A stretch of 64,000 nucleotides of DNA, taken from IMG/VR virus record IMGVR_UViG_3300022752_000032, positions 39,450-103,449 of that record. One strand, given 5' to 3'. This document shows positions 25,430-62,623 of this stretch, piece by piece. The first letter of the stretch is position 1; each line of letters opens with the position of its first letter. The stretch is from a virus (taxonomy: Duplodnaviria; Caudoviricetes). Both the position numbers and the translations under genes were made by a program. The notes beneath the pieces are model-generated. The model was not told the DNA's origin, made no database searches, and worked only from the letters and a program-made list of their open reading frames with translations.

Positions 25430-28400
25430 TCAGGTAAGTAGTCTAAGTAGCTTAGACATTTGACTAGATATCTCACTCTGGCTGTATACCTCTTGACCTG
25501 ACATGAAGTCCTTCATACCTTTAGTAGCGATATCTGCGTCTTTTTGACCAATTTTATTCTCAACCCTAGTGATCATTTTTTCCATTAGATCCTGTAGGGC
25601 AGGTGGTACATCACTAAATCTGATCTTCTGAGCATCTTCTCCAAAGGCAAAAGGTAGGTTAGCAATAACCTTGCCTAACTCTCCAGCACTGTTTCTAACA
25701 TTGCCTATAGCCTCAGCGTTAAGTGCTCCTGTATCTAATCTATCTACAATATCTAGCAAATCGCCAGCAGCCTTGGCTGCTTCAGCGTAGTTACCAGCAT
25801 TATCTAGATTATCAACCTCTTCAATCTTCTTTAATGCAGCATCTGATCCAGCATCACCTAGGTCCAGTTTCAACCGAGCAAGCACTTGTCGAAACTTCCC
25901 TGTGGCATCACGGGGTTGGGTTTTAGGTGTGTATTTAGCTCTGGACTTTTCTGCGTCTTGCTTACTCTTAACTTCTTTTTTTAGTATATCTGTTTCTTCA
26001 TCTGTAAGACCTTTTAGATCTTCTTTTGTTAAATCAGGTGTACCAACAGGCTCACTTTGATCTACTACATAAGGATCTTTTTCAGCAAATGTTTCAGAAT
26101 TGGCTAAAAAATCTGCTTCTGAAGCCTCTCCCATTTCATTTAAAATGACAACAATCATATCTTCTGGCTCCCATTGAGCGTCATATAGATCATCTGGTTG
26201 TTGAATAATTTTGCTTATAGGCATTTGTAGTTGATCCTGTGGAATCTCCATCTGCTCCATTGTCTCTGGCATGTAATCACTAGAAAATTCTTCTACAGAA
26301 TTATTCTTAGCTCTATCACGCTTAGCATGTGTTGCAGTGTAAATACCTAAAGCATCTTTATGACGTAGTTGACAGTAACCCTTAGCACGAGGACCTAGAT
26401 ACTTTGCTAAATGCTTTACGCATCTACTCCAGTCACCAGGTGCTCCCCAACGGATTTTTGCAGCTCCTTCGCCTCTTGTCCAGTAGCGACGAAGCGTTTC
26501 AGCGTTTCCCCGGTTACGATCCAAACCGCCAGCGGCAACAACTGATTCAACAATAGAGATTCTTGCTCTTAAACTAGCAGCAATACTATCTGTATCGTTT
26601 ACGGATGCTTCTTTCCAGTTCTCTGGAATTAGATCTTTTCGATCTAACTGACGAGCCATCTTTACAATATGACGGCGAACCAAACCACGATTTCCTGGCT
26701 TAGCACGTCCATATGCATGAACAGCATTTTTTAGATCAGAAACATTTCTAATTGGGAATGACCCATCTGGAAGTGCTTTTTTATCTTTTGCTAATTCCAT
26801 ACGTTGTTTGCGAGTAATGACTGCTAACTCTGAATCTGAGTTATCAATACTTTGAAGCATATAAGAAGAAGATTCTTCTTTCATCTTATTTACTCTATTA
26901 GATAATTCAGATGCTTTAATAGCAGCAGTAATTGTTCTCATTCTATCTTTAGCACTATTACTAGCCGCAATTAATGGTGCTTCTAGTTTATCAATTCGAG
27001 TATGTAACTCTGCTAAAGGATCGTTCTTTAGTTGAGCAAGAACGCTTGCACCAGCAGCAACAAGTGCCATAACTTGACCTGATGCAACACGAGCACGAGC
27101 AATTGGGAAGCCAGGAACATTTACCTGACAAATTGCTACAAGCTCTAAAGCACCTTTAATTGGTCTCCAATCTCCTGACGGAGCAGAGGCACGTAAAGCA
27201 CGAATTTGTTCTGGAGTTGTGCCAGGGCGAAGTGCTCCTGATACCCAGATACCATAAGCATCTTCTCCAGCATGTACATCTGCTACTGCAGATGCTGTGT
27301 CGTCATAATGACGAACTGCTTCTGAAGCACTTGCTTCAAGAGAAGCATGTCCTCCAGCTAAAGTTAATTGTCCAACTGGAACATCTGTTCCATCGTCAGC
27401 ACGTACAGCACCAGTGTGGAAGTATGCATAACTGCTCTTACTCCGAGGAGGACGAGTTCCATAAGACATTCCAATATGATCTACATGCCATGCAGCAATG
27501 TGACCATACACTTGACCTTCATCAGTTACTGTTAGTGCGGTTGGTTTTTTTAATTTTGGGTTAGCAAACCAATCTTTCGGCGGAGTAACTGGTATTGACC
27601 CAGCCACAATTCCACACGCTACTAACGCTGATGCGTCTAAAGGATTTAATCCTTCGACATACACTCCATCAGATATCACTTCTTCCTCCTGCATTTCTCC
27701 GCTTTGGTCTGCGAGTTCTACTCGACATTCCTGAAAAGCGGGCTTGGGGACAAGAGTTACAGCCATAACCCTTGCCTTAGTTATGTTCATTTTACCTGCT
27801 CCAACTTTTTTGTTAGAGTCATTTTCAGCATTTTCTTTTTCTTCATCTGCTTCAAACATGTCCATATCAGCAGAAACTCCACGGATGAAGCCTCCACGAA
27901 CTAATCTTTCCGCTTCTTTTCCGTATTCTCCAGTATCAAAATATCCTCTGGCATTTCCAATACCTTGTTCTACTCTTTCCATCTGAAGAATTGTTCCAAT
28001 TACAACTGATCCAGAATGACCCTCGCCAGTCTTAATTTGCCATAAAAATGGAAGAGGAAGTTCACGCATAGTAATAGCGCCTTTTTCAAACTTACGACCA
28101 TCTCCAGACTCTATGTCTTCTGGGATAACTAAAGGAATAACAAACTCTGCTCCTTTAAAATCTTCTATCTCTGCTCCTGCTAAGACAACTCTGTTTCTGG
28201 CATCCGCTGCTCTTGCTTTAAGAGAGGTTGCTTCGAGTATGGCTTCAGAAGGAAGTATAAAATCTGTGCTAAACGCGTCCGCTCTAACTCCTTTTTTGCC
28301 ATAAAGTTGACGATGCTCCTTATCTCCAGTCCACATGCCAGTTGCTTCTTTATGACGCAATGCACAGTAGCCTTTTGCTCGAGGACCCATGTATTTTGAA

Positions 28401-30622
28401 AGTTGGCGAACGCAGCGGGTCCAATCACCTGCGGTATTCCAACGAATTTTTGCTGCACCTTTTCCATATAACCAATAACGACGAAGTTTTTCAGCATTTC
28501 CTTTGTTACGGTCAATTCCTCCAGCAGCAATTAAGGAAGAAATTATTGAATCTGTAATATATGCAGATGCAGTTTTAGCAGCTGAATCTATTTGATCCAA
28601 AACTATTTTTAAGGTGTCATCATCTAAGACAACAACTGGTGGAGGTGTAGGACTCTTTAAATCAGAAAGAATTGAGTCATCTTTTTCCCATACTCCTGGC
28701 TTACGCTTCCATGTAGAAGTTACAACAGAGTCTTTACTAGTAGGTATTAATGAAACTAATTCCATTACCGCTTGAGGGTCATCAGGTGAAACAATTGCCA
28801 TATAAATTGGTGGAACATCTGAAGTATCTGGCGTTAATGCTACAGATGCAGCAGAGGTAAGACCTTTAGCAGGTTGTCGAAAAGCAGGTGGAACTTTTAA
28901 TCCAGGGGAAGGAGTTAAGTCTTTAGTTGGCTTGTAGCCTTCTATTGAAGAAGGATCTACTTTTGGTTGATACCAAATTGAATTAGGATAAGTAGTTTCT
29001 CCATTTACTACAACTTTTTTCTCTAAAAACTTTCTTAAACTTGGATCGTTATAAGCATTAGGAGTTTTTGTTTCTGTGCTAACAGCCGTAGGAGCGATAG
29101 GAGAAGATGCTTTTAATCTTTGATCAGTGCTCCACGCTGGAAGATCATTTAATATTGTTTGAACTTGAGCAGTGTTTAATTGAGGAAGTTTTCCAGGAAG
29201 AGTGGCATTAGGGGAATCAATAGGAACTCTAGGCTCTCCTAAAATTCCTTTAGTAAGTTGCTTAGTAGATGTTAAAGTTTTTTCTTGTGGAAGTGGTTTA
29301 AAAGTATCTGCAGGCTCTGTAGTATTAGCAGGAACATCAACATACTTTCCATTATCTAACTTAACCTTAACGCTTTGAGTAGCAGGGTTAATAGATTCAA
29401 TAGTTCCTGAATACTCTGGCTTTTTACCAATAACAACTCGTCCACCAGACTTGGCAAACTTACCTATAGCATCTCTTACCTGAGAACGTGCTTTCTGAGA
29501 GCGCTCTTCTGGAGTGTAATTTCCATCTTGATTAGTTACAGGAGTTCCTGCTGTCGGAGCAGTGGCAGCAGTTAAAGAAGAGTCTGAAAACTCCTCATAC
29601 TCGCTATACATATTTTCATCATAAGAAATCTCATTAATTAAATCCCAATCAATTTTATCCATCTCATCTACAAATATGTCAGACTCTTCTTGATTAATTT
29701 GAGATATAGAAATTGATTTCATAGGATTAGAGTCTAAGTTTCCTGAAACAATAATTGCAGTTTCTGTGTCTACAGGAACATGTATTTTCTCAACCATGTC
29801 ATAGGGATCATCGAGGCTTTTATCGTAAGTGTGAAAATCATAGTTAATATTTCCAAGATCTTCCCACATTGCATCGTCCCAAACAAAGACTGATCCATCT
29901 GTATTTACTTTGTATAATCGATCAATACCACTACCATCTAAACGAATACGAATAAAGAACTGAGGAGCCATATCTTCTGGCAACATCTCTGACTCTATAA
30001 AAGAGTTAAGTTCTACCTTTTCTGGAGACTCATAGTCGGTCATAACAAATTTATACGAAGCAGTAATTGAGTTTGCCTGAGCCTTCTTATTTTCACGAGC
30101 AACTATTGCACTAGCCCAACGCTCTCCTGCATCTCCACCCCAGAGCGCCCAAGCGATACGTCCATTTGAAGGATAGCCAGGTTCTGAAGGCTCGTAGCCT
30201 TTTCCTTTTTTATCTACTTGATGACGTGGAAAGTATTTAGCAATGTGACGAACTTTTCTAATACCAATTTGACCACCACGAGCAAGAGTTCTAGCAGTAT
30301 TTAAACCTACAGGTGTACCACCACGATCATGCTTTTTACGCCACTCTAAGGCACGTTTTGCCTCTGATTGAACTGATTTTGGAATTGTGTATAAACGATC
30401 ATTATTTGAAAAAATTTTTATATCTAAATCTGATATTGCAGCGGTTGCTAACTCGTAAGTAACAGAGGATGGATTCTCTTGGCTATCATCAAGAGTAAAG
30501 GAGGCAATAAGCGCATCTGCATAGTCAATAGAAGAAACTAAATTTCTTTTCTCGTCAATTACTACAGCCTTGTTTTCAAGCACAAATAAAGCGTTATTCC
30601 CACTACGACCTATAAATTGCAA
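25430..30622 (-). CDS. Giant mosaic capsid maturation protease-containing protein
   Basis: 1730 aa upstream of capsid; ESGDGR...LPLP...GH...IG...GVSAD...TLVPKPAF prohead-protease-like segment (~27700-28140); GRIAWALWGG domain, duplicated LRRYW...RC...GYC...H domain, ALPDGSFPI domain. Confidence 0.75.
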   Translation of the reverse strand: MQFIGRSGNNALFVLENKAVVIDEKRNLVSSIDYADALIASFTLDDSQENPSSVTYELATAAISDLDIKIFSNNDRLYTIPKSVQSEAKRALEWRKKHDRGGTPVGLNTARTLARGGQIGIRKVRHIAKYFPRHQVDKKGKGYEPSEPGYPSNGRIAWALWGGDAGERWASAIVARENKKAQANSITASYKFVMTDYESPEKVELNSFIESEMLPEDMAPQFFIRIRLDGSGIDRLYKVNTDGSVFVWDDAMWEDLGNINYDFHTYDKSLDDPYDMVEKIHVPVDTETAIIVSGNLDSNPMKSISISQINQEESDIFVDEMDKIDWDLINEISYDENMYSEYEEFSDSSLTAATAPTAGTPVTNQDGNYTPEERSQKARSQVRDAIGKFAKSGGRVVIGKKPEYSGTIESINPATQSVKVKLDNGKYVDVPANTTEPADTFKPLPQEKTLTSTKQLTKGILGEPRVPIDSPNATLPGKLPQLNTAQVQTILNDLPAWSTDQRLKASSPIAPTAVSTETKTPNAYNDPSLRKFLEKKVVVNGETTYPNSIWYQPKVDPSSIEGYKPTKDLTPSPGLKVPPAFRQPAKGLTSAASVALTPDTSDVPPIYMAIVSPDDPQAVMELVSLIPTSKDSVVTSTWKRKPGVWEKDDSILSDLKSPTPPPVVVLDDDTLKIVLDQIDSAAKTASAYITDSIISSLIAAGGIDRNKGNAEKLRRYWLYGKGAAKIRWNTAGDWTRCVRQLSKYMGPRAKGYCALRHKEATGMWTGDKEHRQLYGKKGVRADAFSTDFILPSEAILEATSLKARAADARNRVVLAGAEIEDFKGAEFVIPLVIPEDIESGDGRKFEKGAITMRELPLPFLWQIKTGEGHSGSVVIGTILQMERVEQGIGNARGYFDTGEYGKEAERLVRGGFIRGVSADMDMFEADEEKENAENDSNKKVGAGKMNITKARVMAVTLVPKPAFQECRVELADQSGEMQEEEVISDGVYVEGLNPLDASALVACGIVAGSIPVTPPKDWFANPKLKKPTALTVTDEGQVYGHIAAWHVDHIGMSYGTRPPRSKSSYAYFHTGAVRADDGTDVPVGQLTLAGGHASLEASASEAVRHYDDTASAVADVHAGEDAYGIWVSGALRPGTTPEQIRALRASAPSGDWRPIKGALELVAICQVNVPGFPIARARVASGQVMALVAAGASVLAQLKNDPLAELHTRIDKLEAPLIAASNSAKDRMRTITAAIKASELSNRVNKMKEESSSYMLQSIDNSDSELAVITRKQRMELAKDKKALPDGSFPIRNVSDLKNAVHAYGRAKPGNRGLVRRHIVKMARQLDRKDLIPENWKEASVNDTDSIAASLRARISIVESVVAAGGLDRNRGNAETLRRYWTRGEGAAKIRWGAPGDWSRCVKHLAKYLGPRAKGYCQLRHKDALGIYTATHAKRDRAKNNSVEEFSSDYMPETMEQMEIPQDQLQMPISKIIQQPDDLYDAQWEPEDMIVVILNEMGEASEADFLANSETFAEKDPYVVDQSEPVGTPDLTKEDLKGLTDEETDILKKEVKSKQDAEKSRAKYTPKTQPRDATGKFRQVLARLKLDLGDAGSDAALKKIEEVDNLDNAGNYAEAAKAAGDLLDIVDRLDTGALNAEAIGNVRNSAGELGKVIANLPFAFGEDAQKIRFSDVPPALQDLMEKMITRVENKIGQKDADIATKGMKDFMSGQEVYSQSEISSQMSKLLRLLT

Positions 30623-30639: not shown

Positions 30640-30924
30640 TTACTTCGCTGACTCGTACTCTTTTAGTTCGTTTATTCCAATAGCCTCACTGGAACCTTCG
30701 GCTTCGTCGTATACGGCTATAAAGGCGGGGTCAACATATATGACCATTAAACCATCAAAATCAAAGTGGTCATCCTCGTCAGATAGCTCAATCCAGTCAC
30801 CATTCTGTCTGTAGAAAGTGCCTTCATCTGACTCGTAAATTACTACTACTACCTCATCAAATTCTGTATCAATCAGTGCATACAAATCTGAAATGTTTTT
30901 TGGTTTATCTGGTGTGAAAGCCAT
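30640..30924 (-). CDS. Small acidic protein (YRxxGxW motif)
   Basis: 94 aa, strongly acidic, AGGAG RBS. Confidence 0.7.
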   Translation of the reverse strand: MAFTPDKPKNISDLYALIDTEFDEVVVVIYESDEGTFYRQNGDWIELSDEDDHFDFDGLMVIYVDPAFIAVYDEAEGSSEAIGINELKEYESAK

Positions 30925-30926
30925 AA

Positions 30927-31709
30927 CTACTCCTTTGCCTTAGAGTCATCAATTGGACCACCTGCAACCCAAGCGTTACAAGTCCTGGAAGCGGCGCATT
31001 TAAAATCAAATGCTTCGCAGTAACCAAGTTCAGCAGCATCTACAGCGTCCCAAGCGTTATCTTTACTTGATCCACCTTGCTCAATGCCTTGAGCAATGCA
31101 GTCTTTCATTTTAGTAGTTGTAATAAACATTACGCAGTTTCCGCAACGTGACTTTTTTGCTTCATCTATTGTTATAGACCAGCGTGTTGATTTTTCTTGC
31201 CAAAACTCTTCATTTGGTTCTGCTGGATTTAGTGGACCATAAGCAGCATCTTTAATTGCCTTCTCGCGGTTGGCAAGATTGATGGAGATATCTTGTGTTG
31301 CAGGAGGACAAGCATCTGTTGCAGCAGCAGCAGCAGTTACGGGTTCTACTGATTGATTTTCATTTCTTATTTCTAATGAATCTTGAGTATCACTAGTCTC
31401 GTCAATAACTGCCTGCTCAATTGTGTCATAAGGCTCTGATACATCAAAAGGCATAACAGAGACTCGACTCATATTTTCTGAAGCAAGTACTGCCCAGTCT
31501 GTTGGAGTTGTAGGTAATTCTAAATTAGAAGCAGTGTATAAATCTTTTGCCATATCAATTCTTTCTTGAGTAAGGCCATATAAGTCCACAACTTCTTGCG
31601 GTGCAGCAAAAGCAACATCAGTATTAGAAGCAACAATGGAGAATATATGATCTCCGTCTTGAATAGGCAGGTCAGAGTTTATGTATGCTCTAAATATTTC
31701 TATAGCCAT
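30927..31709 (-). CDS. Two-domain head-module protein with C-terminal Cys-rich domain
   Basis: CPPATQD...YGPLNP...RCGNC...GYCEAFDFKCAASRTCNAW after a VTAAAAA linker. Confidence 0.75.
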   Translation of the reverse strand: MAIEIFRAYINSDLPIQDGDHIFSIVASNTDVAFAAPQEVVDLYGLTQERIDMAKDLYTASNLELPTTPTDWAVLASENMSRVSVMPFDVSEPYDTIEQAVIDETSDTQDSLEIRNENQSVEPVTAAAAATDACPPATQDISINLANREKAIKDAAYGPLNPAEPNEEFWQEKSTRWSITIDEAKKSRCGNCVMFITTTKMKDCIAQGIEQGGSSKDNAWDAVDAAELGYCEAFDFKCAASRTCNAWVAGGPIDDSKAKE

Positions 31710-31718
31710 TTTTATCTC

Positions 31719-34700
31719 CTAATTCCTTCCCGCTAAACCAGTACGCCATTTTTCTTTACTTATACCTCTTAGTGCTTCTAAACGACTAATAACCTCGTCT
31801 AAAGTTTCTTTACTAATATCAGAACCATACATTCTTTTTAGTGCTTGGATCGCTTGTTGAGCAGTCATGTCTATTAATTCTTTATATGCAGTTGCTCCAA
31901 TTTGTTTAGCTACTGCCCTATTAATCTCTCCACCTGATCTAGCATCCCTGCCCTTCATGTGGGTAAATGGATCTGTAACACTTCTACTACCACCACCATT
32001 TAGAAGTTGAGCGTATCCGTGATCAATTGGTAAAAGTTGAATTTCTTCATAACCATTTTTATCTACGCCTTTATTGTCAACGACTCCTGCTAAGAAATTT
32101 TGTACATGTCTATCAGTATTGTAAATAACAGCATCAAGGACTGCTAAACCAACTACATCTGCAAGAGAGGCTCTTTTAGCAATAGTCTCGGTTGAAGATT
32201 TACCAGGGAATTCATCAAATAACACTGGCTTATTCTTAAAATCTATTCCGTCGCCAGCATTTGTGATTATAACTGTTCTAGAATCATTTGGGTGCTTTTG
32301 AACATATGCTGCACCTGCAATACCCAAAGATTGAGCTATCTTTGAAGAAATATACTCTGCATTAGCTGTTCCCTCTGTTTTTTCTCTCTTAAAGTAAACA
32401 ACTTGACCACTCTGTCTATGTATAAGTCTAAAGTTGCTACCGCTATTTATACCTTGAGAAACTCTTTGAATATCAAAGCCAGTGTCATTTCCATCTATAA
32501 CTAACTTTTTACGAACTCCTGAATTAAGAGCTTTTCCAAAATTTAAAATTTTAGTAGGATCTACGTTTAATAAAGCATCTGCTGGTCCAATATTAGATCT
32601 GTTTGGACTATAAACCATTTTTTCATCGTGCAGTGCTTTTACTAAAGTAGCAATTTCATTTATATTCTTTTCTGTCTCAGCCTCATCTGCGCCCTGCATA
32701 CCTTCAGGATTTCTAATCTCCTGACTTGCATACTGAGCCAAAGCCTGACGAGCCTTTTGATCTAGTTTTGCTAAAGAAGCACCGCCTTCTAGAGCAAAGA
32801 ATTCTTTTAGTTGCTCTTTGTGAGGATCTAGATAAGAGTTCTGTTGATAAATTTCATCTGAGGCAAAGGCAGAGCGTAGTTTGTTAGAGGCGTTGAATTC
32901 ATTATCTTTATTATTAACTCTTTTTTCTGCTTCAGCAACAGGATCAATAAACTCCATGTTTGCTTTAGCAAAAGGCTTCTGGTTTGCTGCTTGTTTTTGT
33001 TTAATAAGTTCATTAAGTTGATCTATCTTATCGCCCAAAGCCTCATACCTAGCATCGCCTGAATTTTTTAAGTATGTAGATACTCGAAGTAAATCAGAGG
33101 GATCAATTCCTTCAATAACTTGACCTTGATCTATCTCTCTAGCAAAACTATCTAGATAATAAGCAGCCTCACTTGCTTTTCGATTAGCGCCTCTTTCATT
33201 CCACTTAGGAAGTTTGATAGAGATTACTTTTATAGCCTCTTTAATTTTTTCTTCATCGAGACCGTTTACATCTGCTGGAATTAAGTCATCTGGTATTGGC
33301 TCATTTAATATTTTTTCAAATTCAGCACGTCTTGCTTTATCTTTTTCATTCTTGTATTTTTCTATTTCCTTCTTAAAGTTTTCTACATAGTCAGCAAGAA
33401 CTAATGCATTAGGGTTATTTTCTAAATCTCTCACTCTGCGTAGTTTACGAATTGCTGAATCTAAAGGAGATGTGGAAAGATCTTCTATTTTTTCTCCAGC
33501 ATTTAGTCTATTAACTAGTTCATCTAGTTTTTTACCAGCATTACGGACTTCATCGTTTGCTGCATAATCTCTTGCTTTAGGGAAATACTTAACTCTAACT
33601 CTCTTAAGTTCTTTTTGAACAAGTTCTTCATTCATATCAGCAGCGTCAGGAATTTTTTCTGCTATTGGCTCTGCTTTAGGAACCTCTACCTTAGGAGCAT
33701 CTGGTGCAACATCTCTAGCCTCAGGTGCAACGCGAGCAGGACCTGCGCCGTCTGCTTGCTTAACAATCATTCTTGACTTCCACAAACGTGGACCGTCTTC
33801 ACCAGGGACTTGTACCCAAACATAGTCTTTGTAAACTTTTCCGTTACGACCAATTCCACCAACCTTTTTGGCTTCATCAATTTGGTCTCCAGCGCGAACA
33901 ACAACTACACCCTCGCCGTACATCTCATTCTTTTTTGCGTTTCCATGACGAACTCTGTCACCAGGTTTTAAAACAATTCCATTTTTATCTTTATAGAAGC
34001 CTTCTCTGTATGCAAATCCTCCTACATCGCGACCAGCAACTACTTCAACTCTTTGTTCTAGTGGCTGTCTTAGGGCGCGACCACGCTTTGGTCCGTCTCC
34101 TTTATTTTCTTCTGACGGAACTCTAAAATCTTCAGGTACTTCTCCAGTACCAAGACGACGCATGTTGCGAATAGGAGAGCGACGATCAAAGAAACGGAAA
34201 TACTCTTTTTGATTTCTTGGATCTTTAATTAAGAATCTGACTCGACCAAAAGGTGCTGGTTGAATATCAAGAATTTCTTCATAAACTTTATTAAAGTTAT
34301 TCCACAAGAAGTCACCAATTTTTACATCTCTTGCTTTAGTAGGAGCAAGACGTCCAGCATTTGCTTCAACAAAAGCATTTACTTTAATTACTTCAGGGTT
34401 TTCTTCTACATAAGTTTTATCTTTTGGCTCTTGATTGTCGTCAAGTTTTGCCTGCTCAACAGGGACATTATTAATTTCTTGTGGTTGTTGATTATCTTGA
34501 TTATCACCAATACCTACTAAATCAGCATCAATAATTTCTTTTAAGCGATCAGCATATTTATCATATGCTGCTTGATCTTTCCATTCAAAGTTTCCATCTG
34601 AATCAATCTTTGCGAATGGACCATCTTCTGGTAAACCATTATCGTCATAGATTTCGATAGGTGCTTCTGCACGAGGACCGCCATCATCAGGCTTTAGGAA

Positions 34701-37700
34701 CATAATTCCGTTATCTAACCAGTCCATCTCTGCAACACCTTTTTGAAGTTTATCTATTTGATCAGCAGTAGGTTTGTAGTCTCCAACAACTGCTTCTGGC
34801 TTTGCTTCTGGATTCTCTCGAGCATACTTAGCCTCTCTTGCGCGAATCTCTTCACGAGGGATACCTGTAGCATCTGCAATGTCTTGTAATGACTCTCCAG
34901 CCATACGTCGGTCAAAAATCTCTTTATCAGTGATTTCAACTGCGACTGGTGAACCTTCTTTACTATTCTCAATCTTGCTGAGAGTAAATGTTCTTCTGTC
35001 TCCGTTTGCGTCAATTGCTCTTACATTTACATTTGAATTTCTAGGGTTCTCGAATACTTCTACAGGAAGAACTAAACGCTCAGTGCCGTTATAAAGGAAT
35101 GCAATTTTTTGTTTAGCAGCAATTGCATCTTTAATTTGAGTCTCTAGTGGAACATCTCCATCAACAATAAGACGTATAGCATCATCAGCAGGGATATTTA
35201 CATCGGCTACATCCTCTACTTGACCAACTAATCCTTCTTCAGCAATTTTTCTTAACTCAGCGTTAGTGTCTATGCCTTTAAGTTGAAGAGCATCTCTAAC
35301 TGCTTCTCCTGGCACGTTTGCAACAAAATCTTCTCCATCATCTGTAGGAAGGGCTATTACAGCAGCACCTGGAACCTCGTTACCTGGTTCTACAGATCGA
35401 CGTAACTCTTTTAATAAATCATTTGTAGAAATTTCTTGCGCTAAGAAAACAGGATTATCTGAGAATCCTTCAGGAAGAATTGCATCAGGATTTTCTGCAG
35501 TTACATCTTTCCATGCTGCAAATGGCTCTGGGCTAAGAGGGTTATAGCCTTCTGGCATCTGAATCTCTTCATTTTTAGGCAAGTATGGAATGTGATCTTT
35601 TGTTTCATTAAATTGATCTAACTCTTTTTGGCTAAGACCTTCTAGAAGCGGAGGAAGTGGAATCAAATCCATCTCTTTAGCATCAAACTTTGGTTCTTGA
35701 GTAGGAGGCTCTAAATCAGGATTTTGTTCTGTAACTTTTTTAAATGACTCGGCAAGTTCTGGAGTATTGCCAGAAATAATTTCTGCTTTCTTTCTAAAAT
35801 CATTTAATGCTTTTTCATTGTTATCAGCACCAAGTTTTTTATCATAAATCTTTGCTAACTCCATAGGAGCATCAATTCCTGCTTCTTCTAAAGCAAAGAA
35901 AAGTGCTTCAGCAGGAACAAACTCATCGCCTTTAGCAAAAGGAAGAGCGCCTACTCCTAAAGCATTCTCCCCGTTTTCTCCTGGAGAAACTGCTTGCTCT
36001 AATGCAACAAGTATGTCTCTTTCATCTTGCTTTTGAGCAAGTTCAATAGGGTCATCTGTAAAGTCTGGACTATCTTCATCTACGCGCCCTTGAGGATCAT
36101 ATGCAGAACCTTGCTTAATTTTATATGCCCCAGGTGGGTAGTTAAATTCAAAACCACCTTTAGTTTCAACTGGAGCATCTGGTTGTTTAGGAAGATCTGC
36201 CTTCTTTTTATTATTGCCAGGGAAATCTCCAGCATCATTTATAATTTTTAATTTTTGACCAAAACTCTTCCACTTTTCTTCTTGTTGCTTAGATGGAGCA
36301 TCTACCATAGCTGAGTTCATGTAGTCATCTAATGCACTAGCAAATCCTTCTGGTTGAAGTTTTTCATCTAAAAAGAAACTAGCAATCTCATCAGCAGACA
36401 TTGCATCAATCTTGTTTAGATCTTCTTCTTTATACCCATAAGCAGGAGCAAAGTTTTTAATCTCTTCACGAGCCTTTTGAGCATACTCTGTAGCTCTAGC
36501 ATCTTTATCTTTATCTACATAAGCCCAGTTCTGATAAACCTTATCTTCTAAAAGATTGTTTACATCTTTAACTGAAATCTCGCCTTGCTCTACAACTCTT
36601 GCTACAAAGTTATCTTGCTTGTATACGTTCTCTAAATCTGCTGGCTCTGTTGCTCTGCGTAACATAAGAGCATTGTTCTTCTCTTCAATATCCCAGCCTT
36701 CAGGAACAGTGCGATCTAAAGCATCTACTCTGTCATCAGCATTCTTCTTTAACTCTGCTTTACGATTTGCAAGAGCGTTTTCTTTATCCTTTTTCTCAGC
36801 CATAAGTTTTTCATATGCATTTGGCCCTGGTCTATCTTCAGCAGGAATTAAGCCTTGTCTAAATGGAAGATTTGCTTTTGGATTTAATAGTTTATCTTCA
36901 TTTCCTTCTAATTTATCTTGAACATCTGCCCAAGTCTTTACTACACCAATTTGCTCAGCGGACTTAGCGTTTAGTATTTGATAATCTTTTGTACCGTCAT
37001 CTTGTTTAGACACAAAAACTACAAATTCTTTGTTAGAATCTACATATCTCTCTACTTTATCGCCAAACTCTTTATATTTTTCATCTTTTTCCCAGCCGTT
37101 AGGGGCATCAAGAAATACTAAATCTTTTTCATTTATAACTTCATCAGTTACGCTTGGAATTATAGGTTCAGGAGAGTAGCCATCTGGAGTAGGTAGAACT
37201 GCTTTTATATATTCACCTTTAGCAGGATTTATTTCAGCGATTTTTCCATCTGGAAACTCTACTTCTACATCTTTACTATTTTTAGCGTTGGCAACTACTC
37301 TTCCACTAAGACTAAATACATTTCCGTCAAGGCGTCGAATGAGAGCACGAATGCCTCCACCTTCATAAGCAAATCTTCCTTTACGATCACGACGTTGACG
37401 TCTAGCACGAGCACTACGTGACTCAAAAGAGTTTCCATCAGATGCTGCAATTAAAGCCTCGCCTGGAATCATTCCTTGAGGAAGTGAAAGTAGTATTGAA
37501 GTGTAGTAAAGATGCTCCACAGACCCTGGTATAGATTCAAATGCTGAAGCAAGAACTGCTTTTGCTCTTTCATCTGTAATCCTTGGATCAGCAGCAAACC
37601 AACGAGAGCGTGCAATTCTTAATGCACTAGCAGTCATTGAATGCTCGCGAGTTGAGCGTGGGTGAGAGATTGGTAATAAATCTGTATTAGTTGCGTAGAA

Positions 37701-37982
37701 AAAATCACTTTTATTATGTTTAGCAAGTGATATGTACTTATTAAGTTCTTTCATTGCTAAGTGCTCGCGGAGAGATAGTGGCAATCCTTTGCTCTCTTCT
37801 AGAGAGCGCATAACTACAGAAAAAGCAGCTTTTTTAGTAATCTTTCTTGCAGTAGATGTTGAAAAGTTAGCATTATCTACAACTGACAAAACTTTATCTC
37901 TTAAATCTACTGCTTGCTTAATAGCAACAGCACGACGACCTTCAGGAGTGATGGCATAACTAATTCTTCTTATTCTACTCAT
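31719..37982 (-). CDS. Giant polyvalent protein with WYL-like, HTH and C-terminal HipA/PI3-PI4-kinase-like domains
   Basis: 2087 aa; kinase motifs YFK, AEYISSKIAQSLG, NTDRHVQNF, PIDHG; WYL-like IAFLYNGTERLVLP...RTFTLSKI; HTH GESLQDIADATG. Confidence 0.75.
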   Translation of the reverse strand: MSRIRRISYAITPEGRRAVAIKQAVDLRDKVLSVVDNANFSTSTARKITKKAAFSVVMRSLEESKGLPLSLREHLAMKELNKYISLAKHNKSDFFYATNTDLLPISHPRSTREHSMTASALRIARSRWFAADPRITDERAKAVLASAFESIPGSVEHLYYTSILLSLPQGMIPGEALIAASDGNSFESRSARARRQRRDRKGRFAYEGGGIRALIRRLDGNVFSLSGRVVANAKNSKDVEVEFPDGKIAEINPAKGEYIKAVLPTPDGYSPEPIIPSVTDEVINEKDLVFLDAPNGWEKDEKYKEFGDKVERYVDSNKEFVVFVSKQDDGTKDYQILNAKSAEQIGVVKTWADVQDKLEGNEDKLLNPKANLPFRQGLIPAEDRPGPNAYEKLMAEKKDKENALANRKAELKKNADDRVDALDRTVPEGWDIEEKNNALMLRRATEPADLENVYKQDNFVARVVEQGEISVKDVNNLLEDKVYQNWAYVDKDKDARATEYAQKAREEIKNFAPAYGYKEEDLNKIDAMSADEIASFFLDEKLQPEGFASALDDYMNSAMVDAPSKQQEEKWKSFGQKLKIINDAGDFPGNNKKKADLPKQPDAPVETKGGFEFNYPPGAYKIKQGSAYDPQGRVDEDSPDFTDDPIELAQKQDERDILVALEQAVSPGENGENALGVGALPFAKGDEFVPAEALFFALEEAGIDAPMELAKIYDKKLGADNNEKALNDFRKKAEIISGNTPELAESFKKVTEQNPDLEPPTQEPKFDAKEMDLIPLPPLLEGLSQKELDQFNETKDHIPYLPKNEEIQMPEGYNPLSPEPFAAWKDVTAENPDAILPEGFSDNPVFLAQEISTNDLLKELRRSVEPGNEVPGAAVIALPTDDGEDFVANVPGEAVRDALQLKGIDTNAELRKIAEEGLVGQVEDVADVNIPADDAIRLIVDGDVPLETQIKDAIAAKQKIAFLYNGTERLVLPVEVFENPRNSNVNVRAIDANGDRRTFTLSKIENSKEGSPVAVEITDKEIFDRRMAGESLQDIADATGIPREEIRAREAKYARENPEAKPEAVVGDYKPTADQIDKLQKGVAEMDWLDNGIMFLKPDDGGPRAEAPIEIYDDNGLPEDGPFAKIDSDGNFEWKDQAAYDKYADRLKEIIDADLVGIGDNQDNQQPQEINNVPVEQAKLDDNQEPKDKTYVEENPEVIKVNAFVEANAGRLAPTKARDVKIGDFLWNNFNKVYEEILDIQPAPFGRVRFLIKDPRNQKEYFRFFDRRSPIRNMRRLGTGEVPEDFRVPSEENKGDGPKRGRALRQPLEQRVEVVAGRDVGGFAYREGFYKDKNGIVLKPGDRVRHGNAKKNEMYGEGVVVVRAGDQIDEAKKVGGIGRNGKVYKDYVWVQVPGEDGPRLWKSRMIVKQADGAGPARVAPEARDVAPDAPKVEVPKAEPIAEKIPDAADMNEELVQKELKRVRVKYFPKARDYAANDEVRNAGKKLDELVNRLNAGEKIEDLSTSPLDSAIRKLRRVRDLENNPNALVLADYVENFKKEIEKYKNEKDKARRAEFEKILNEPIPDDLIPADVNGLDEEKIKEAIKVISIKLPKWNERGANRKASEAAYYLDSFAREIDQGQVIEGIDPSDLLRVSTYLKNSGDARYEALGDKIDQLNELIKQKQAANQKPFAKANMEFIDPVAEAEKRVNNKDNEFNASNKLRSAFASDEIYQQNSYLDPHKEQLKEFFALEGGASLAKLDQKARQALAQYASQEIRNPEGMQGADEAETEKNINEIATLVKALHDEKMVYSPNRSNIGPADALLNVDPTKILNFGKALNSGVRKKLVIDGNDTGFDIQRVSQGINSGSNFRLIHRQSGQVVYFKREKTEGTANAEYISSKIAQSLGIAGAAYVQKHPNDSRTVIITNAGDGIDFKNKPVLFDEFPGKSSTETIAKRASLADVVGLAVLDAVIYNTDRHVQNFLAGVVDNKGVDKNGYEEIQLLPIDHGYAQLLNGGGSRSVTDPFTHMKGRDARSGGEINRAVAKQIGATAYKELIDMTAQQAIQALKRMYGSDISKETLDEVISRLEALRGISKEKWRTGLAGRN

Positions 37983-39142
37983 GATTGATCCTCCTCTTCT
38001 AGTACTGGAAGCAAATCTGCATCTAAACTACCTTTTCCTAGTGAAGCAAGAAGTGATGCTCTTAAGAATGGATCTTCTCCATTTTTAACTGCTCTTAACC
38101 AACTTGCTCTAATTGCAGGCTCTGCTTCATATCCATAACCTAGATACTCAGTCATAGCAAAAATTGCATCTTCTACAGTTTCATAATCTTCTTTGTTCTT
38201 TAGTAGAACATTTAACTCTTGATCTATTACGTACTCATCTAATTCATCTTTTACTTCAGTTAGATTTTTACTGCCTTCTACATTAACAACTCCGTCAGGT
38301 ATTACGGCAAATCTACATTTTCCTGTTGGCTCAACTGGGAGAGCAATGATTTTACAATTCGAACCCCCAGCATATAGAACGCAATTGGCGCAAGTAACAC
38401 CAATAGAAGCAACTTCATTTTCCGCTGGCGGCGTGTAGCCTGCCCAAATACCTTCTTCGTCTTCATTAAATTTTCCATACTTCTGCGAGATCTCAATCAA
38501 TGCATTTGCTAAATCTTGTTCTTCAGGAACTAAACCTGCTGCAGTAATAGAGTTTGATTTTTTAGTGCTACGAGGATGAGAAGATGGTAGCAAATCATTG
38601 TCTGACTTATAAGCAGCATTTGTTGGTCTGCCAGACTTAAGTAGTTTTAGAAAAGCATTTACTCTTCCCATTGCCCACTGATTACGGTTCATACCAGGAC
38701 GATGAGAAACAGAAAATGCTCCAGCGCCACGACGATAAACTGCTTTTAACATACCTAAAGTTGCTCTTCTTCCTTTAGGACTTTTCTCGTTATGATTAGA
38801 GACTTTCTCTTTAAGAGAGTTCTCTACTGCTTTAGAAAAAACAACTTTACGAGAACCTGATGCAGATCCTTTTTTATTTTTACTAGAACCCTTAACTTGA
38901 TCTTTCTTAGGAGCAGGAGTCTGAGAAATTGTTCTTTTATTTTTTGCTGCAAACTCTGAATCATCTGAAGCATCGATAGGAACGCAGTTGGGTACCATAT
39001 TTCCATTCTTACCTTTTTTCATTCCAACCTGCTTATAACCATCCCAACATGGACCTTTACCAGCAGCAGAAATACCTGAAAAAGGGATGTAGTCCCTATT
39101 TTCATCTTTTACCCAATCTAATGGATTAATCTGCTTTGACAT
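37979..39142 (-). CDS. Multidomain head-module protein
   Basis: PCWDGYKQVGMK...VPNCVP motif, LKAVYRRGAGA...QWAMGRVNAF domain, CANC...C...CRF cluster. Confidence 0.75.
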   Translation of the reverse strand: MSKQINPLDWVKDENRDYIPFSGISAAGKGPCWDGYKQVGMKKGKNGNMVPNCVPIDASDDSEFAAKNKRTISQTPAPKKDQVKGSSKNKKGSASGSRKVVFSKAVENSLKEKVSNHNEKSPKGRRATLGMLKAVYRRGAGAFSVSHRPGMNRNQWAMGRVNAFLKLLKSGRPTNAAYKSDNDLLPSSHPRSTKKSNSITAAGLVPEEQDLANALIEISQKYGKFNEDEEGIWAGYTPPAENEVASIGVTCANCVLYAGGSNCKIIALPVEPTGKCRFAVIPDGVVNVEGSKNLTEVKDELDEYVIDQELNVLLKNKEDYETVEDAIFAMTEYLGYGYEAEPAIRASWLRAVKNGEDPFLRASLLASLGKGSLDADLLPVLEEEDQS

Positions 39143-39145
39143 TTA

Positions 39146-39601
39146 TTACATTCCTTGATTAGTGGTTGCTTTTAATTGCCAATCCCATTTGGCATGCATA
39201 TCAATACGCTCTGCAATAAAGTTTGCAATACCTTGCTCATTTGCTTGGTTTGCTATATCAAATGCTTTTCTTAAATCGTTAAGCATTACAGCATTATAGA
39301 TAAGAATGTCTCTAGCAAGATCTAAACACATATAACCTACATCTGTGTCTTCAATGTTTGACATACGAGCAAACTCAACTAATCGATATGGAGATATGGC
39401 TCCAAGTTTTCTTATGTTTTCAGCAAAAGGATCTATAGATCCATCAATGTCTTCATATATTTCACCAAAGAACTCATGAAACTCTGGGAAGTCAGATCCC
39501 ATAACATTCCAGTGCGCTCCTTGCACTTTATGAGAAAGTACTACAGCATCACTAAGACCAACTGCTAGAGCATTAACTAGTTCTGGTTTTTCTACGTTCA
39601 T
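39146..39601 (-). CDS. dps: Dps family ferritin-like protein
   Basis: HWNVMGSDFPEFHEFF...IDPFAENIRKLG...HAKWDWQL Dps signature. Confidence 0.92.
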   Translation of the reverse strand: MNVEKPELVNALAVGLSDAVVLSHKVQGAHWNVMGSDFPEFHEFFGEIYEDIDGSIDPFAENIRKLGAISPYRLVEFARMSNIEDTDVGYMCLDLARDILIYNAVMLNDLRKAFDIANQANEQGIANFIAERIDMHAKWDWQLKATTNQGM

Positions 39602-41325
39602 TGTGTAACTCCTTGTTGCTCAGTGGGGGGTTGTGTTGCTTGTTGTAAAACTTGTTCTACCTCTGGTGGCAGAGGAGCAACAGAATTTTCTTGCTGTGTA
39701 TCTCTAACTGCATTCATCATTTCTGGAGCAACAGTGTTCAACATTGCTTCTGTTAACTCTGGACCAATTGAGCCCTTCTCGGAAAGCATACGGATAGCAA
39801 GTTCATTCGGTGTTGGCGCATCCATAGATGAGAATCCATGAGCACGTCTCCATGAGTCGTAAGAAATAGCACCACGATCAAATCCTGAGTCAGCATCGGC
39901 TGCTTTATCATTTCTAGTAGCAACTGCTGAAGGGTCATACCAAACAACAATTCGATCTACCTCTGATTCAGTAAATCCTTGTGCCTTAAGGTATGGACGT
40001 AAGTAAACAACTGTTAAAGCATCAGCAATTAATAGCATTAATGGTTCGATATGTGCCTTATATAGTGACTCATCGATTTGAAGTGCATTTGAATACTTAA
40101 CGTTTGCTAGACCAGTAACAACATCCTTAGGAACATCTAGTCCTTGAAGGATTCGCTCTAACACTCTGTCGGCGCGAGAAGCAAGTGCTGGATCAAATGA
40201 ACGCTCAAACTTAAATTGTTTAATCTTGTCGCCAAGTTCGGCAGGACCGCGAATAATAAGTGGAACTACTGCGCTAGCAGACTCCTCATCACGAATAGGA
40301 GTTGTCATAGCGTCAATTAATTGTTCTTCAAACTCATCCTCTGCTTCTTCTGCAGTAAATCCTGGGTTTGCTTCGCTATCTGTGTCATATGGATAATCTG
40401 GGTCGCCACCTGCTGCAACTGACAAGCCGTCTGGTAAATAAAGTGCACCAGCGTTTAGACGTGAACGTGCTGTAGCACGGAATGTTCTATTAAGAAGTAA
40501 AAGTTCTGCGCAAAGATCTAGTAAGCCACGAAGAGATGAATCTGCTTCATCTGAGTAACGAGGATGTGAACGCCAAATGCGTCCTACAAATGCACTCTTA
40601 GAAAGTTTATTATTGGCTGTCATATTTCCACCAATACTTTGTTCTCTACGACCAACAACATTAAATCCACCACGAGTGTCAGTCATAATCTCATCTACGG
40701 ATTTAATATCCCAAGACTCTGGAATTCCTGAACCAGCACGTTCTGGCATTTGAACTAAGTAACATTCACCAGCAACTGAAATGTTTAATGCAGCATCGCG
40801 AAGAAGTCCTGCTTGTCCACCGTACGCGGAATCTAAACGAGCAAGTGCTCGCTCGGCTGCCGCTGCTAAACGTGGATCAATAACACTAGATAGCGCAACT
40901 GGTGCTGGTGCTTCTGCAGCGTTGTCAACAGCAGCAGCGTAAATACGAATACGAGAAACAACGGAGGCAACTAAGTTAAATGCGTATTTGATTTCTCCGA
41001 TGGCATCATAATATTCCCACGCTTCGGATTGCCATGCGCTAGATCCAGCAGAGCGACGTTGTTTGAATTGTTCAAACTCGCCTTTATCATTAATTTTAAT
41101 TTGTACTGCAGCAGCAGTTAAAGTTCTAGGTGTTGAGTAGGAAACTGATTGAGCATTAGAGGAAATAAATATTCCAGCAGCGCCTGTAAGTTTTGGTTTA
41201 ATGTTTCTAACTATCTGAGTTGAACGAGTAGTAGACTTTTTTCTTTTTCTAATTTTCTTTGGAGCAATTTCAGACGCAACAATAGGGGTAGGCTCTATCG
41301 GCTCTTGGTGTTTAAAAACACTCAC
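39598..41325 (-). CDS. Portal protein
   Basis: Start reassigned to GTG 41325 behind GAGGAG; WQSEAWEYYDAIGE, VAGECYL, RIWRSHPR, SRLNAGAL, VVPLII motifs. Confidence 0.85.
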   Translation of the reverse strand: MSVFKHQEPIEPTPIVASEIAPKKIRKRKKSTTRSTQIVRNIKPKLTGAAGIFISSNAQSVSYSTPRTLTAAAVQIKINDKGEFEQFKQRRSAGSSAWQSEAWEYYDAIGEIKYAFNLVASVVSRIRIYAAAVDNAAEAPAPVALSSVIDPRLAAAAERALARLDSAYGGQAGLLRDAALNISVAGECYLVQMPERAGSGIPESWDIKSVDEIMTDTRGGFNVVGRREQSIGGNMTANNKLSKSAFVGRIWRSHPRYSDEADSSLRGLLDLCAELLLLNRTFRATARSRLNAGALYLPDGLSVAAGGDPDYPYDTDSEANPGFTAEEAEDEFEEQLIDAMTTPIRDEESASAVVPLIIRGPAELGDKIKQFKFERSFDPALASRADRVLERILQGLDVPKDVVTGLANVKYSNALQIDESLYKAHIEPLMLLIADALTVVYLRPYLKAQGFTESEVDRIVVWYDPSAVATRNDKAADADSGFDRGAISYDSWRRAHGFSSMDAPTPNELAIRMLSEKGSIGPELTEAMLNTVAPEMMNAVRDTQQENSVAPLPPEVEQVLQQATQPPTEQQGVTQ

Positions 41326-41365
41326 CCTTGAAACTCCTCGTCTCTGTGGCGGAGTAGAAGAACTA

Positions 41366-41656
41366 TCACTTTTCTTCATACGCAGCCAACAAACCAGCAA
41401 TAGCAGAGATTGCTAGAACAACCTCTACTGGATGTACTACATTAGGGATAATGATACGTGATATTTCAAGTAGTGATGCGACCCAAATTGCAGTACACCA
41501 CATACAGGTAAATAGATAACCAAACTTAGATCTCTCTGGAGGAAACTTTTTCCAAATTGCATTTCTTAATTTAGAGAATATCTCGTCTTTAACAATAAGC
41601 CTTGCTATTCTATAGGTCGCAAGACCAGCCACTGATAACTCAAATAAGTTATCCAT
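41366..41656 (-). CDS. DUF1360-like membrane protein
   Basis: LATYRIARLIVKDEIF...LFTCMWCTAIW, hydrophobic; usual position before portal. Confidence 0.75.
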   Translation of the reverse strand: MDNLFELSVAGLATYRIARLIVKDEIFSKLRNAIWKKFPPERSKFGYLFTCMWCTAIWVASLLEISRIIIPNVVHPVEVVLAISAIAGLLAAYEEK

Positions 41657-62209: not shown

Positions 62210-62623
62210 CTATGATCCGACTCGGACGGGATTAATAGTTGTTTCTGTATCTGATTCACTTTGTACGCTATGTACCCAAGAAGTAGCATCCGCTTTAATC
62301 CCCGCTTTCTCTGCTCTGTCAATTGATCTCTTAAACTTAACAATAACCATCCGTTCGTCTTCTGTCAAGCCACCCCACACACCGAAGTTCTCGGGCACCG
62401 CTAATGCGTGCTCTAAGCACTCCGTCTTGATAGGGCATGCCGTACATATTTTTTTAGCGGCACTCTCCCGTGCCTGCTTCTCAACACCGCGAAGCATGTC
62501 ATCATTAAAGAACACCGTCGCGTCCACGCCGTTACTTTTGCACAGCGCTTTATCTTGCCAGGACCAGTTACGGGCAGACGGCACTAATGCATCGTTCGGA
62601 TTGAAGACGGGTTCCATAGGCAT
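62210..62623 (-). CDS. whiB: WhiB-family transcriptional regulator
   Basis: WQDKALC...FF...AKKICTACPIKTECLEHAL...GVWGGLTEDER (4 Cys and GVWGG). Confidence 0.93.
   Translation of the reverse strand: MPMEPVFNPNDALVPSARNWSWQDKALCKSNGVDATVFFNDDMLRGVEKQARESAAKKICTACPIKTECLEHALAVPENFGVWGGLTEDERMVIVKFKRSIDRAEKAGIKADATSWVHSVQSESDTETTINPVRVGS

Follow-up and report, generated by a model that had tools for sequence, protein, structure and literature searches.

A cysteine-free giant head-module protein of an uncultured lake actinophage ends in an atypical kinase fold and is followed by a co-diverging partner domain

Here we describe a giant protein of 2087 amino acids (aa) that is encoded in the head operon of an uncultured lake actinophage (IMG/VR record IMGVR_UViG_3300022752_000032; 103,449 bases, estimated to be 78% complete). 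The stretch analysed, hereafter the window, comprises 64,000 nucleotides (nt), positions 39,450 to 103,449 of that record. An original prediction, made from the sequence alone, had proposed that this protein ends in a kinase-like domain and might be an injected effector with downstream partners. The open reading frame (ORF) is real, and it belongs to a header-sharing, almost cysteine-free and previously undescribed family. Its C-terminus can be assigned with high confidence, from structure models, to an atypical kinase fold with a complete catalytic set. The very next ORF carries a domain that occurs and diverges together with the kinase, and modelling predicts that this domain plugs the kinase active site. 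We lean, if only slightly, towards reading the giant as packed and injected polyvalent cargo with an active kinase that its partner would hold off and with which it would be swapped as a cassette. The features that carry this argument are as follows.

31719..37982, minus strand: 2087-aa cysteine-free giant head-module protein (P0001), a single open frame with no stops
31722..33665, minus strand: hypervariable C-terminal block of the giant (aa ~1440-2087), a helical region plus the kinase, delimited by sliding identity
31722..32600, minus strand: atypical kinase domain (aa ~1795-2087, ~290 residues), from AlphaFold2 (AF2) and structure comparison
31347..31709, minus strand: kinase-partner domain, aa 1-121 of the 260-aa protein encoded at 30927..31709, from a hidden Markov model (HMM) and a complex model
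30951..31334, minus strand: Cys-rich C-terminal domain, aa 126-253 of the same 260-aa protein, from locus comparison
30640..30924, minus strand: acidic 94-aa protein (p94), from locus comparison

The C-terminal kinase and its partner domain

The K, E, DRHxxN and IDHG motifs that had been read in the C-terminus are all present and conserved. The catalytic set comprises K1865, E1876, N1955, D1957-R1958-H1959, N1962 and D1987, and each of these residues, R1958 included, is either invariant or conserved to at least 90% in an alignment of 24 sequences that are 19-43% identical to that of the window. The AF2 model built from this 24-sequence alignment has a predicted local distance difference test score (pLDDT) of 92.8 and a predicted template modelling score (pTM) of 0.92. 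Structure comparison, which the original prediction had named among its checks, found the kinase fold: re-scoring of Foldseek matches with VIA-align placed CotH (5jd9) first with Z 14.2 (root-mean-square deviation 3.8, 247 aligned residues), followed by PI4KIIa (4pla, Z 12.5), CtkA (3akk, Z 11.9) and HipA (4pu5, Z 11.7), with MavQ (Z 10.3) and Vps34 (about Z 10) lower. The top four matches cover 220-250 aligned residues. At the level of sequence the matches were to PI3/PI4 kinases together with a sub-threshold HipA_C. The PI3/PI4-kinase family PF00454 was matched in 18/24 kinase relatives at E<=0.01 (best 2.4e-06), HipA_C in only two of the 24, below threshold, and the kinase profile matched PI4K2B at E 0.0027.

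A search of 1.84 billion proteins with aa 1700-2087 returned 83 representatives, most of which are the extreme C-terminus of proteins of ~2,000-4,200 aa, the rest being shorter proteins or fragments. Among the 93 members of the giant family (that of the window included) the kinase HMM matches 72 and leaves 21 without a match. Six of the 72 matches are internal, ~70-95 residues long and far from the C-terminus, so that 66/93 carry a C-terminal kinase, or 65 when the partial match of 60 residues in P0056 is not counted. The majority of the C-terminal matches end six residues or fewer from the C-terminus. Moreover, a kinase core was found at aa 2010-2165 of gp82 of the cultured Microbacterium phage Pumpernickel (E 3e-16). 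Fold matches in BFVD included other phage proteins labelled with head-morphogenesis, portal or ADP-ribosyltransferase parts. The fold search in BFVD also returned the post-portal protein gp67 of Gordonia phage GodonK (1479 aa; E 3.9e-4), but the HMM detected no relationship (E 0.0076 over 47 residues), and it was set aside as a lead only.

The partner domain is the very next ORF in 13/13 kinase-bearing contigs (E<=3e-32) and is present in 0/11 kinase-less loci (10 IMG/VR contigs and the metagenomic Actinomycetia phage DSL-LC01). The loci counted have a complete giant gene and downstream sequence; those with a kinase are L002, L005, L006, L007, L010, L012, L013, L014, L018, L023, L024, L025 and L037, and the kinase-less IMG/VR loci are L038, L039, L041-L045, L048, L052 and L053. 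Left out were L046, L047 and L049, in which a 1730-aa-type protein that shares the putative loading module (see below) had been taken for the giant, L054, which is without downstream sequence, and L033-L036, whose contigs were already counted. Because the loci of ArdC type yielded truncated contigs only, without complete downstream sequence, the kinase-less set consists of the RNase_T-type group and DSL-LC01.

Kinase and partner also diverge together. Relative to the window, L005 is 96% identical in the header, 99% in the kinase, 96% in the partner and 90% in p94, and the corresponding values for L006 are 93, 48, 35 and 89%. Between L018 and L023 the header is 94% identical, the kinase 24% and the partner 23%. 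Over 45 non-independent pairs from 10 sequences, the Spearman coefficient between kinase and partner identity is 0.84, against 0.64 for kinase and p94, 0.56 for kinase and header and 0.47 for partner and p94. Sliding windows place the breakpoints at aa ~1440 of the giant and midway along the 260-aa gene: L005 and the window share 90-100% identity in the partner domain and 50-67% in the Cys-rich domain, and in L002 the pattern is reversed.

The partner domain also occurs as a stand-alone protein of 118 aa. The 260-aa protein has seven cysteines, none of them before residue 134. In L018-L025 its Cys-rich domain, in which no Pfam match was found, stands as a gene of its own between portal and the 387-aa protein (p387), and the kinase-less DSL-LC01 (L001), L052 and L053 have it joined to a p94-like domain. 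From these arrangements the Cys-rich domain is judged to be mobile and not tied to the kinase.

The complex of kinase and partner was modelled from the 24-row kinase alignment and a 12-row partner alignment. The ipSAE values were 0.79, 0.61 and 0.77 (median 0.77), and the best of three controls reached 0.00. Between runs at least 83% of contacts coincide, and the pLDDT of the partner is at least 82. In the calibration of the tool, which is a rough guide for custom alignments, the mark was reached by 58/80 solved complexes and 2/110 mismatched pairs. On the kinase side the modelled interface takes in the Gly-rich loop V1841-S1847, K1865, D1957, H1959-N1962 and D1987, and on the partner side the invariant residues Y9, E49 and N79, with N79 against both catalytic aspartates. 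N79 is the partner residue nearest to these aspartates, and the adjoining Ser81 is not conserved. Since N79 is invariant at the catalytic Asp and Ser81 is not conserved, a plug is favoured over a phospho-acceptor, and the partner domain is predicted from the model to plug the kinase active site. The partner profile showed no likeness to solved chains (best E 0.26, no HipS), and a recall of HipS-HipT is therefore an unlikely source of this result.

Two candidate inhibitors had been offered in the original prediction, namely the N-terminal domain of 30927..31709 and the acidic product of 30640..30924. The co-occurrence, the co-divergence and the placement in the modelled active site together bear out the kinase linkage of the former. 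The latter was rejected, as p94 is 87-99% identical where the kinase is only 48% identical, being conserved across kinase swaps, and its domain also adjoins kinase-less giants (E 3.3e-07 in DSL-LC01 (L001); E 0.004-0.012 in ORFs of 201 aa and 244 aa). The p94 domain was further detected in Pumpernickel gp83 (E 7e-04). By its distribution p94 is a general head-module component and not specific to the kinase.

The first ORF after the kinase-less giants of RNase_T type is one of 201 aa that combines an N-terminal domain with a weak p94-like domain. No Pfam family was found in these ORFs or in the C-terminal domains of the kinase-less giants, of which the N-terminal domain of the 201-aa ORF may be the matched partner.

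L038-L045 (e.g. L041:17327-17932) and L048:14790-15384: 201-aa-type ORFs

A modular, cysteine-free protein family

A word-indexed search recovered 92 relatives of the giant, of 1,194-3,613 aa. The regions corresponding to aa ~1-370 and ~600-930 of the window's protein are common to nearly all of them, and the other modules move, duplicate or are replaced. The giant has no cysteine in 2087 residues, compared with 83 in the 10,937 residues (0.76%) of 20 other ORFs of the window, at whose rate 11-16 would be expected. Of the relatives, 71/92 are likewise free of cysteine and none has more than two. The tape measure and capsid proteins of the window are also cysteine-free. Such avoidance fits, and does not prove, export from the cell and passage through the tail. 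A 666-aa ORF of the tail region (7483..9483, minus strand) has, in contrast to these proteins, 28 cysteines (4.2%).

PHROGs and NCBIfam gave no match for the giant or the 260-aa protein and one borderline PHROG for p94, and phmmer with the whole giant gave no match among PDB sequences. Searching 50,697 phage records with tblastn returned only DSL-LC01 (34% identity over aa 24-739), whose giant of 3289 aa occupies the same post-portal slot. Pumpernickel gp82 (2235 aa) also lies in this slot, with the RRDRKGRF-type motif described below at its N-terminus; no giant gene was found in the post-portal slot of Gordonia phage GMA2. At L052/L053:4581-22856 there is a single open frame of 6091 aa with the header motif module, which is about three times the length of the window's giant, and is followed by a 244-aa ORF that fuses p94-like and Cys-rich parts.

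The modules ahead of the C-terminal block are listed here.

36873..37982, minus strand: family-defining N-terminal header (aa 1-370), matched in nearly all 92 relatives
37620..37922, minus strand: DUF5824-like helical module (aa 21-121), from the header HMM
37197..37394, minus strand: RRDRKGRF (aa 197-204) plus a small beta-barrel (aa 206-262), from alignment and AF2
35832..36062, minus strand: repeat copy 1 (aa 641-717), from pairwise BLAST
35229..35465, minus strand: repeat copy 2 (aa 840-918), from pairwise BLAST
34965..35141, minus strand: WYL-like small barrel (aa 948-1006), PF13280, sub-threshold
34827..34907, minus strand: Sigma-70 region-4-like helix-turn-helix (HTH; aa 1026-1052), PF04545 E 0.045

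The header, which a few partial relatives are without, is helical over aa 1-195 and has beta domains at aa 206-262 and 282-348. Its AF2 model from a 39-sequence alignment has a pLDDT of 80.3 and a pTM of 0.47, with RRDRKGRF in a low-confidence linker. Nothing convincing matched its fold among 48,161 PDB representatives (best Z 5.9) or in BFVD (none at E<=1e-3); because there is no clear fold match, a MuF-like or other known fold is neither shown nor excluded. Two parts of the header recur in neighbouring genes. Residues 21-121 are paralogous to aa 100-204 of p387 (header HMM E 1.1e-12; tblastn cross-matches at 32% identity). The RRDRKGRF motif, found at aa 197-204 as had been predicted, is nearly invariant in the 39-sequence alignment, and the motif-plus-barrel module (aa ~185-265) resembles aa 365-442 of the 1730-aa head protein (E 2.7e-09). 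The same module opens Pumpernickel gp82 and recurs in gp84 of that phage and in the portal-adjacent gene of DSL-LC01. All three matches of the pattern R[DE]x(1-2)G[RK][FWY] in the window are in-frame and fall within the giant and the 1730-aa protein. We infer that this module serves in head loading.

The duplicated domain of the prediction was recovered as a repeat of ~80 aa. A BLAST comparison restricted to the two regions gave 41% identity between the copies over 80 columns (E 1e-11), an unrestricted self-BLAST of the giant having listed the diagonal only. Both copies are visible in the family consensus. The WYL-like domain also lies where it had been placed. PF13280 (WYL) matches the segment over nearly its full length (profile positions 4-67 of 70) at E 0.0043 and 17.5 bits, below the cut-off of 21.8, and matches 7/9 homologous segments; the module moves and is duplicated in relatives. 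A profile of the segment gave chance-level matches only against PDB (E>=0.63), and we regard it as WYL-like and not as a proven WYL domain. The HTH that follows is weak in the window itself, and the homologous segment of P0041 passes the PF04545 cut-off (E 8.8e-06; 25.6 bits against 24.1), with E 0.0023 in P0017. The SH3/KOW-like segments that had also been proposed could not be confirmed: no such Pfam family was found in the giant at E<=0.1, ESM Atlas gave no usable match for aa 1065-1460, and small-barrel fold matches were weak (Z 4.4-4.5) and for aa 208-262 only.

Beyond these modules the protein is exchanged among close relatives, a point that the original prediction had listed for checking in its C-terminal domain. 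Along the alignment with the giant of L006, identity is 90-98% over residues 1201-1380, drops to 63%, and lies at 23-62% beyond residue ~1441, and L018 is 94-95% identical to L023/L024 in the header and 24-25% identical in the kinase; kinases that are 24-48% identical thus sit on backbones that are 93-95% identical. In P0017, which is 85% identical to the giant over aa 116-1063, the kinase block is replaced by ArdC-N (PF08401, 4e-31), MPTase-PolyVal (PF18818, 4.4e-30) and SprT. RNase_T, UvrD-type helicase and NUDIX domains occur in further relatives, and the C-terminal 700 residues of four kinase-less giants matched no Pfam family.

Taken together, these features place the giant, by its sequence and that of its relatives, among phage polyvalent-type proteins and not MuF proteins. 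It joins several unrelated domains in one chain (header, two repeats, WYL-like, HTH and kinase), of which only the kinase is a recognisable enzyme. Its relatives shuffle modules that include the hallmark ArdC-N and MPTase-PolyVal, and its gene stands among the virion genes of a portal-terminase phage, surrounded by portal, protease-like, capsid and tail genes. Of the MuF-type framing of the original prediction, what holds is a variable C-terminal effector with a small cognate gene behind it; no N-terminal MuF domain was detected, PF04233 having no match in the giant at E<=0.1, and polyvalent proteins are the better frame.

The head operon and the host

The minus-strand order is portal, Dps/ferritin, the 387-aa DUF5824 protein, the giant, the 260-aa protein, p94, the 1730-aa protein and the major head protein, after which come adaptor, tail and tape-measure genes. 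The head genes abut or overlap, with an overlap of 4 nt at the start of the giant and then gaps of 9, 2 and 17 nt. The expected position of the giant between portal and protease holds loosely: two genes (Dps and p387) intervene on the portal side and the protease match is sub-threshold. The neighbouring genes, and the WhiB-family genes of the record, are listed below.

39598..41400, minus strand: portal protein, phrog_776 E 1.1e-106
39146..39601, minus strand: Dps/ferritin-like gene, PF00210 E 6.9e-15
37979..39142, minus strand: 387-aa DUF5824 protein (p387), whose stop overlaps the start of the giant by 4 nt, PF19141 E 3.8e-07
25430..30622, minus strand: 1730-aa head protein with a protease-like region and two RDxxGKF motifs, PHROGs
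23125..25260, minus strand: major head protein, 711 aa, phrog_777
62348..62560 (= G000:C1:101797-102009), minus strand: WhiB gene, Pfam
G000:C1:35387-35584 and 36419-36622: two further WhiB genes, upstream of the window, Pfam

For the 1730-aa protein the matching PHROGs (phrog_18402, 1.4e-57; phrog_859, 3.5e-93) bear the labels head maturation protease or portal, Peptidase_S78 stays below its 21-bit cut-off (E 0.0011, 19.6 bits), and phmmer found no match among PDB sequences. The RDxxGKF motifs of the 1730-aa protein lie at aa ~382, within the module homologous to that of the giant, and at aa ~1570, and its aa 1338-1451 repeat an internal segment (tblastn self-like matches). As the phrog_777 match begins at residue 162 of the 711-aa major head protein, the latter has an N-terminal extension of ~160 residues, possibly a scaffold-like delta domain. 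The Dps gene is present in L002, L003, L014 and L027 and the same slot is empty in L004-L013 and L015-L026, and this pattern marks it as an indel in otherwise colinear head operons.

The portal is 77% identical to that of DSL-LC01, 58-64% identical to those of cultured Microbacterium phages (64% for Pumpernickel) and 47% identical to those of Arthrobacter phages; it matched 877 records in all, the majority with actinophage names. The record also encodes three WhiB-family proteins above the Pfam cut-off (E 4e-23, 2e-18 and 1e-12). Because the relatives of the portal are mostly actinophages, and in view of the WhiB genes, the host is assigned on sequence grounds to the actinobacteria.

A possible injected kinase and the alternatives

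We propose the following course of events, in which every step after late production is inferred. The giant would be produced late and would enter the procapsid by means of its header, of which the RRDRKGRF-plus-barrel module shared with the 1730-aa protein is a part. It would then travel inside the head and leave it, together with the DNA, for the next host actinobacterium, and the WYL-like and HTH modules may hold it on nucleic acid. There the kinase would phosphorylate host targets, probably proteins, before any phage gene is expressed, in the service of takeover or counter-defence. Since the enzyme is made in a cell that must work until lysis, it would have to be held off, and the partner domain, seated in the catalytic cleft, could keep it silent in the producing cell. 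The partner would be shed at packing, or when the cargo unfolds for ejection through the tail. Kinase and plug would be exchanged between phages as one cassette, and their repeated replacement on near-identical backbones suggests an arms race, either with host targets and defences or between phages.

Several observations weigh against this proposal or temper it. In Foldseek's own ranking Vps34 comes first and the TM-scores are low (0.3-0.4), and PF00454 scores 23.2 bits on the kinase domain (E 7.5e-05) and 20.4 bits on the whole giant, below the gathering threshold of 27.1. Searches of the header gave neither a MuF domain nor another known capsid-targeting one. The partner HMM was trained on 7/13 of the positive loci, the loci without a kinase form a clade of their own, and in Pumpernickel the kinase core is present with no partner domain detectable in gp83. 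The pairs behind the correlation of kinase and partner are mutually dependent, and with a spacing of 9 nt linkage alone explains part of the co-divergence. The complex is modelled and not measured, and supports binding without showing it; even if the partner occupies the active site, it could act there as substrate, activator or adaptor and not as inhibitor. Moreover, all but a few sequences of the giant family are metagenomic.

It is also conceivable, and in our judgement unlikely, that the giant is a head assembly or structural component (scaffold, inner-body or DNA-organising), with a kinase that acts on phage proteins, and only in the producing cell or procapsid. The N-terminal domain of the 260-aa protein would then serve this kinase as substrate or as a regulated adaptor, and no cargo would reach the next host. 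The gene does lie between portal and capsid genes in translational coupling with head genes, header modules are common to other head-module proteins, the partner fills the substrate site in the model, and the 94-aa and 1730-aa neighbours are conserved whatever the C-terminus of the giant. Such a role would nevertheless leave unexplained why ArdC, zincin, exonuclease, helicase and NUDIX modules take the place of the kinase, or stand beside it, on the same header and why kinases of 24-48% identity stand on backbones of 93-95% identity, and the invariant Asn nearest the catalytic Asp, together with the unconserved Ser81, argues against a simple phospho-acceptor. Still less probable is an unpackaged kinase that acts late, in a superinfection block or in envelope remodelling, as proposed for the HipA-family kinase of the 'Gratiaviridae'. 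In the part of Benler et al. 2021 (PMC8008677) used here, that kinase occupies the same slot in phages encoding Dps and immunity is favoured, and the window too has a portal-side Dps. However, the kinase of the window is the terminal module of a cysteine-free protein of 2087 aa whose relatives carry the anti-restriction domain ArdC, neither a glycosyltransferase nor an AAA ATPase was seen among the neighbouring genes examined, and a dedicated active-site partner from the same operon, as modelled, fits an enzyme that is silent in the producing cell.

The substrate could instead be a lipid or small molecule, such as the phosphatidylinositol lipids that Actinobacteria make. The matches to PI3/PI4 kinases (PF00454 in 18/24; PI4K type II at E 0.0027), the second-best fold (PI4KII-alpha, Z 12.5) and the actinobacterial host speak for this, whereas the best and several nearby folds are protein kinases (CotH 14.2, CtkA 11.9, HipA 11.7); the differences in Z are too small to decide the substrate class, and we hold a lipid or small-molecule kinase to be improbable. 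An inactive pseudokinase serving as a binding platform only would agree with the sub-threshold Pfam scores, and is very hard to reconcile with catalytic Lys, Glu, Asp-Arg-His, Asn and Asp residues whose conservation in 24 divergent sequences is complete or at least 90%; we give it next to no credence. A further, rather speculative reading is that kinase-plug pairs form a polymorphic effector-immunity system, in which takeover would require the injected kinase, and the plug made by a running infection or lysogen would neutralise only the cognate kinases of superinfecting kin. Competition between phages would then also drive the swapping of cassettes on genomes that are 93-95% identical, and the substrate could again be phosphatidylinositol lipids, a version to which we likewise assign a low probability.

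The proposed injected, partner-plugged kinase has parallels in several known systems. Among phage enzymes, the Dar proteins of P1 and Alt of T4 are large, head-loaded and delivered with the DNA, and act before phage gene expression; no sequence relation of the giant to DarB or Alt was found, and its enzymatic activity is different. Both the Dar system (DarB) and Alt are named as head-packed, injected enzymes in the main text of Iyer et al. 2017 (PMC5512222), which predicts that polyvalent proteins are packed into heads and injected, and head cargo of this kind is as an idea already known. The giant resembles the polyvalent proteins described there in being very large and multi-module, with its gene beside portal and head genes and with ArdC-N, MPTase-PolyVal, exonuclease and helicase domains in its relatives. 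It differs in its kinase: those of that account belong to a truncated Ser/Thr/Tyr clade from (pro)phages of Verrucomicrobia, Chlamydia and Bacteroidetes, and HipA and PI3 are absent as words from the main text (PMC5512222). The header, the near-absence of cysteine and the co-varying partner likewise do not figure in the parts of that account used here. Polymorphic MuF toxins, as outlined by Jamet et al. 2017 (PMC5576092), share with the giant a place in the head module, a variable C-terminal effector and a small cognate gene downstream. Unlike them, the giant is without a detected MuF domain, is far longer and multi-module, has a kinase as its effector, and has a partner that is fused to, or replaced by, other domains. 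In the 'Gratiaviridae', Bacteroidetes phages that encode Dps, a HipA-family kinase lies between the portal and major capsid genes and is tied to an ATPase and a glycosyltransferase, which was read as superinfection immunity (Benler et al. 2021, PMC8008677); the part of that paper used here describes no giant fusion or partner cassette, whereas the kinase of the window ends a giant and has a partner.

With HipA and HipT (4pu5, 3tpv, 7ab3, 8ezr) the window's kinase shares the same atypical fold at Z 9.9-11.7. HipS inhibits HipT by sitting against its Gly-rich loop and catalytic residues, and the small separate partner is predicted to take a similar position. In contrast to HipBA and HipBST there is no HipB, no toxin-antitoxin operon and no HipA N-subdomain, and the partner is encoded downstream, in a late head operon. 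The NTDRxxxN and ID(N/H)G catalytic motifs of PI4-kinase type II (4pla) align with the kinase, which differs from PI4KII and CotH (5jd9) in its identity of only 7-17% and in its N-terminal helical extension. Among the papers listed by full-text searches of a literature collection, none dealt with HipA/PI4K-like kinases in giant head proteins, nor with the header family, its avoidance of cysteine or the matched partner cassette, although supplements might list such architectures.

In summary, freshwater actinobacteria are among the most abundant bacteria of lakes and their phages are almost all uncultured. These phages appear to devote 6-18 kilobases of their head operon to a modular, cysteine-free protein that is probably cargo, and one of its recurrent modules is a kinase family that is so far unreported for polyvalent proteins and has its own matched partner. 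If the plug model is true, it would answer the general question of how a phage, while still dependent on its present cell, can there produce an enzyme intended for the next one, and the family would offer natural sets of cognate and non-cognate kinase-inhibitor pairs. Moreover, if the 201-aa ORFs are indeed partners of the kinase-less giants, a terminal module plus its partner would be a general rule. A cultured relative exists in Microbacterium phage Pumpernickel, whose gp82 makes virion proteomics and genetics feasible.

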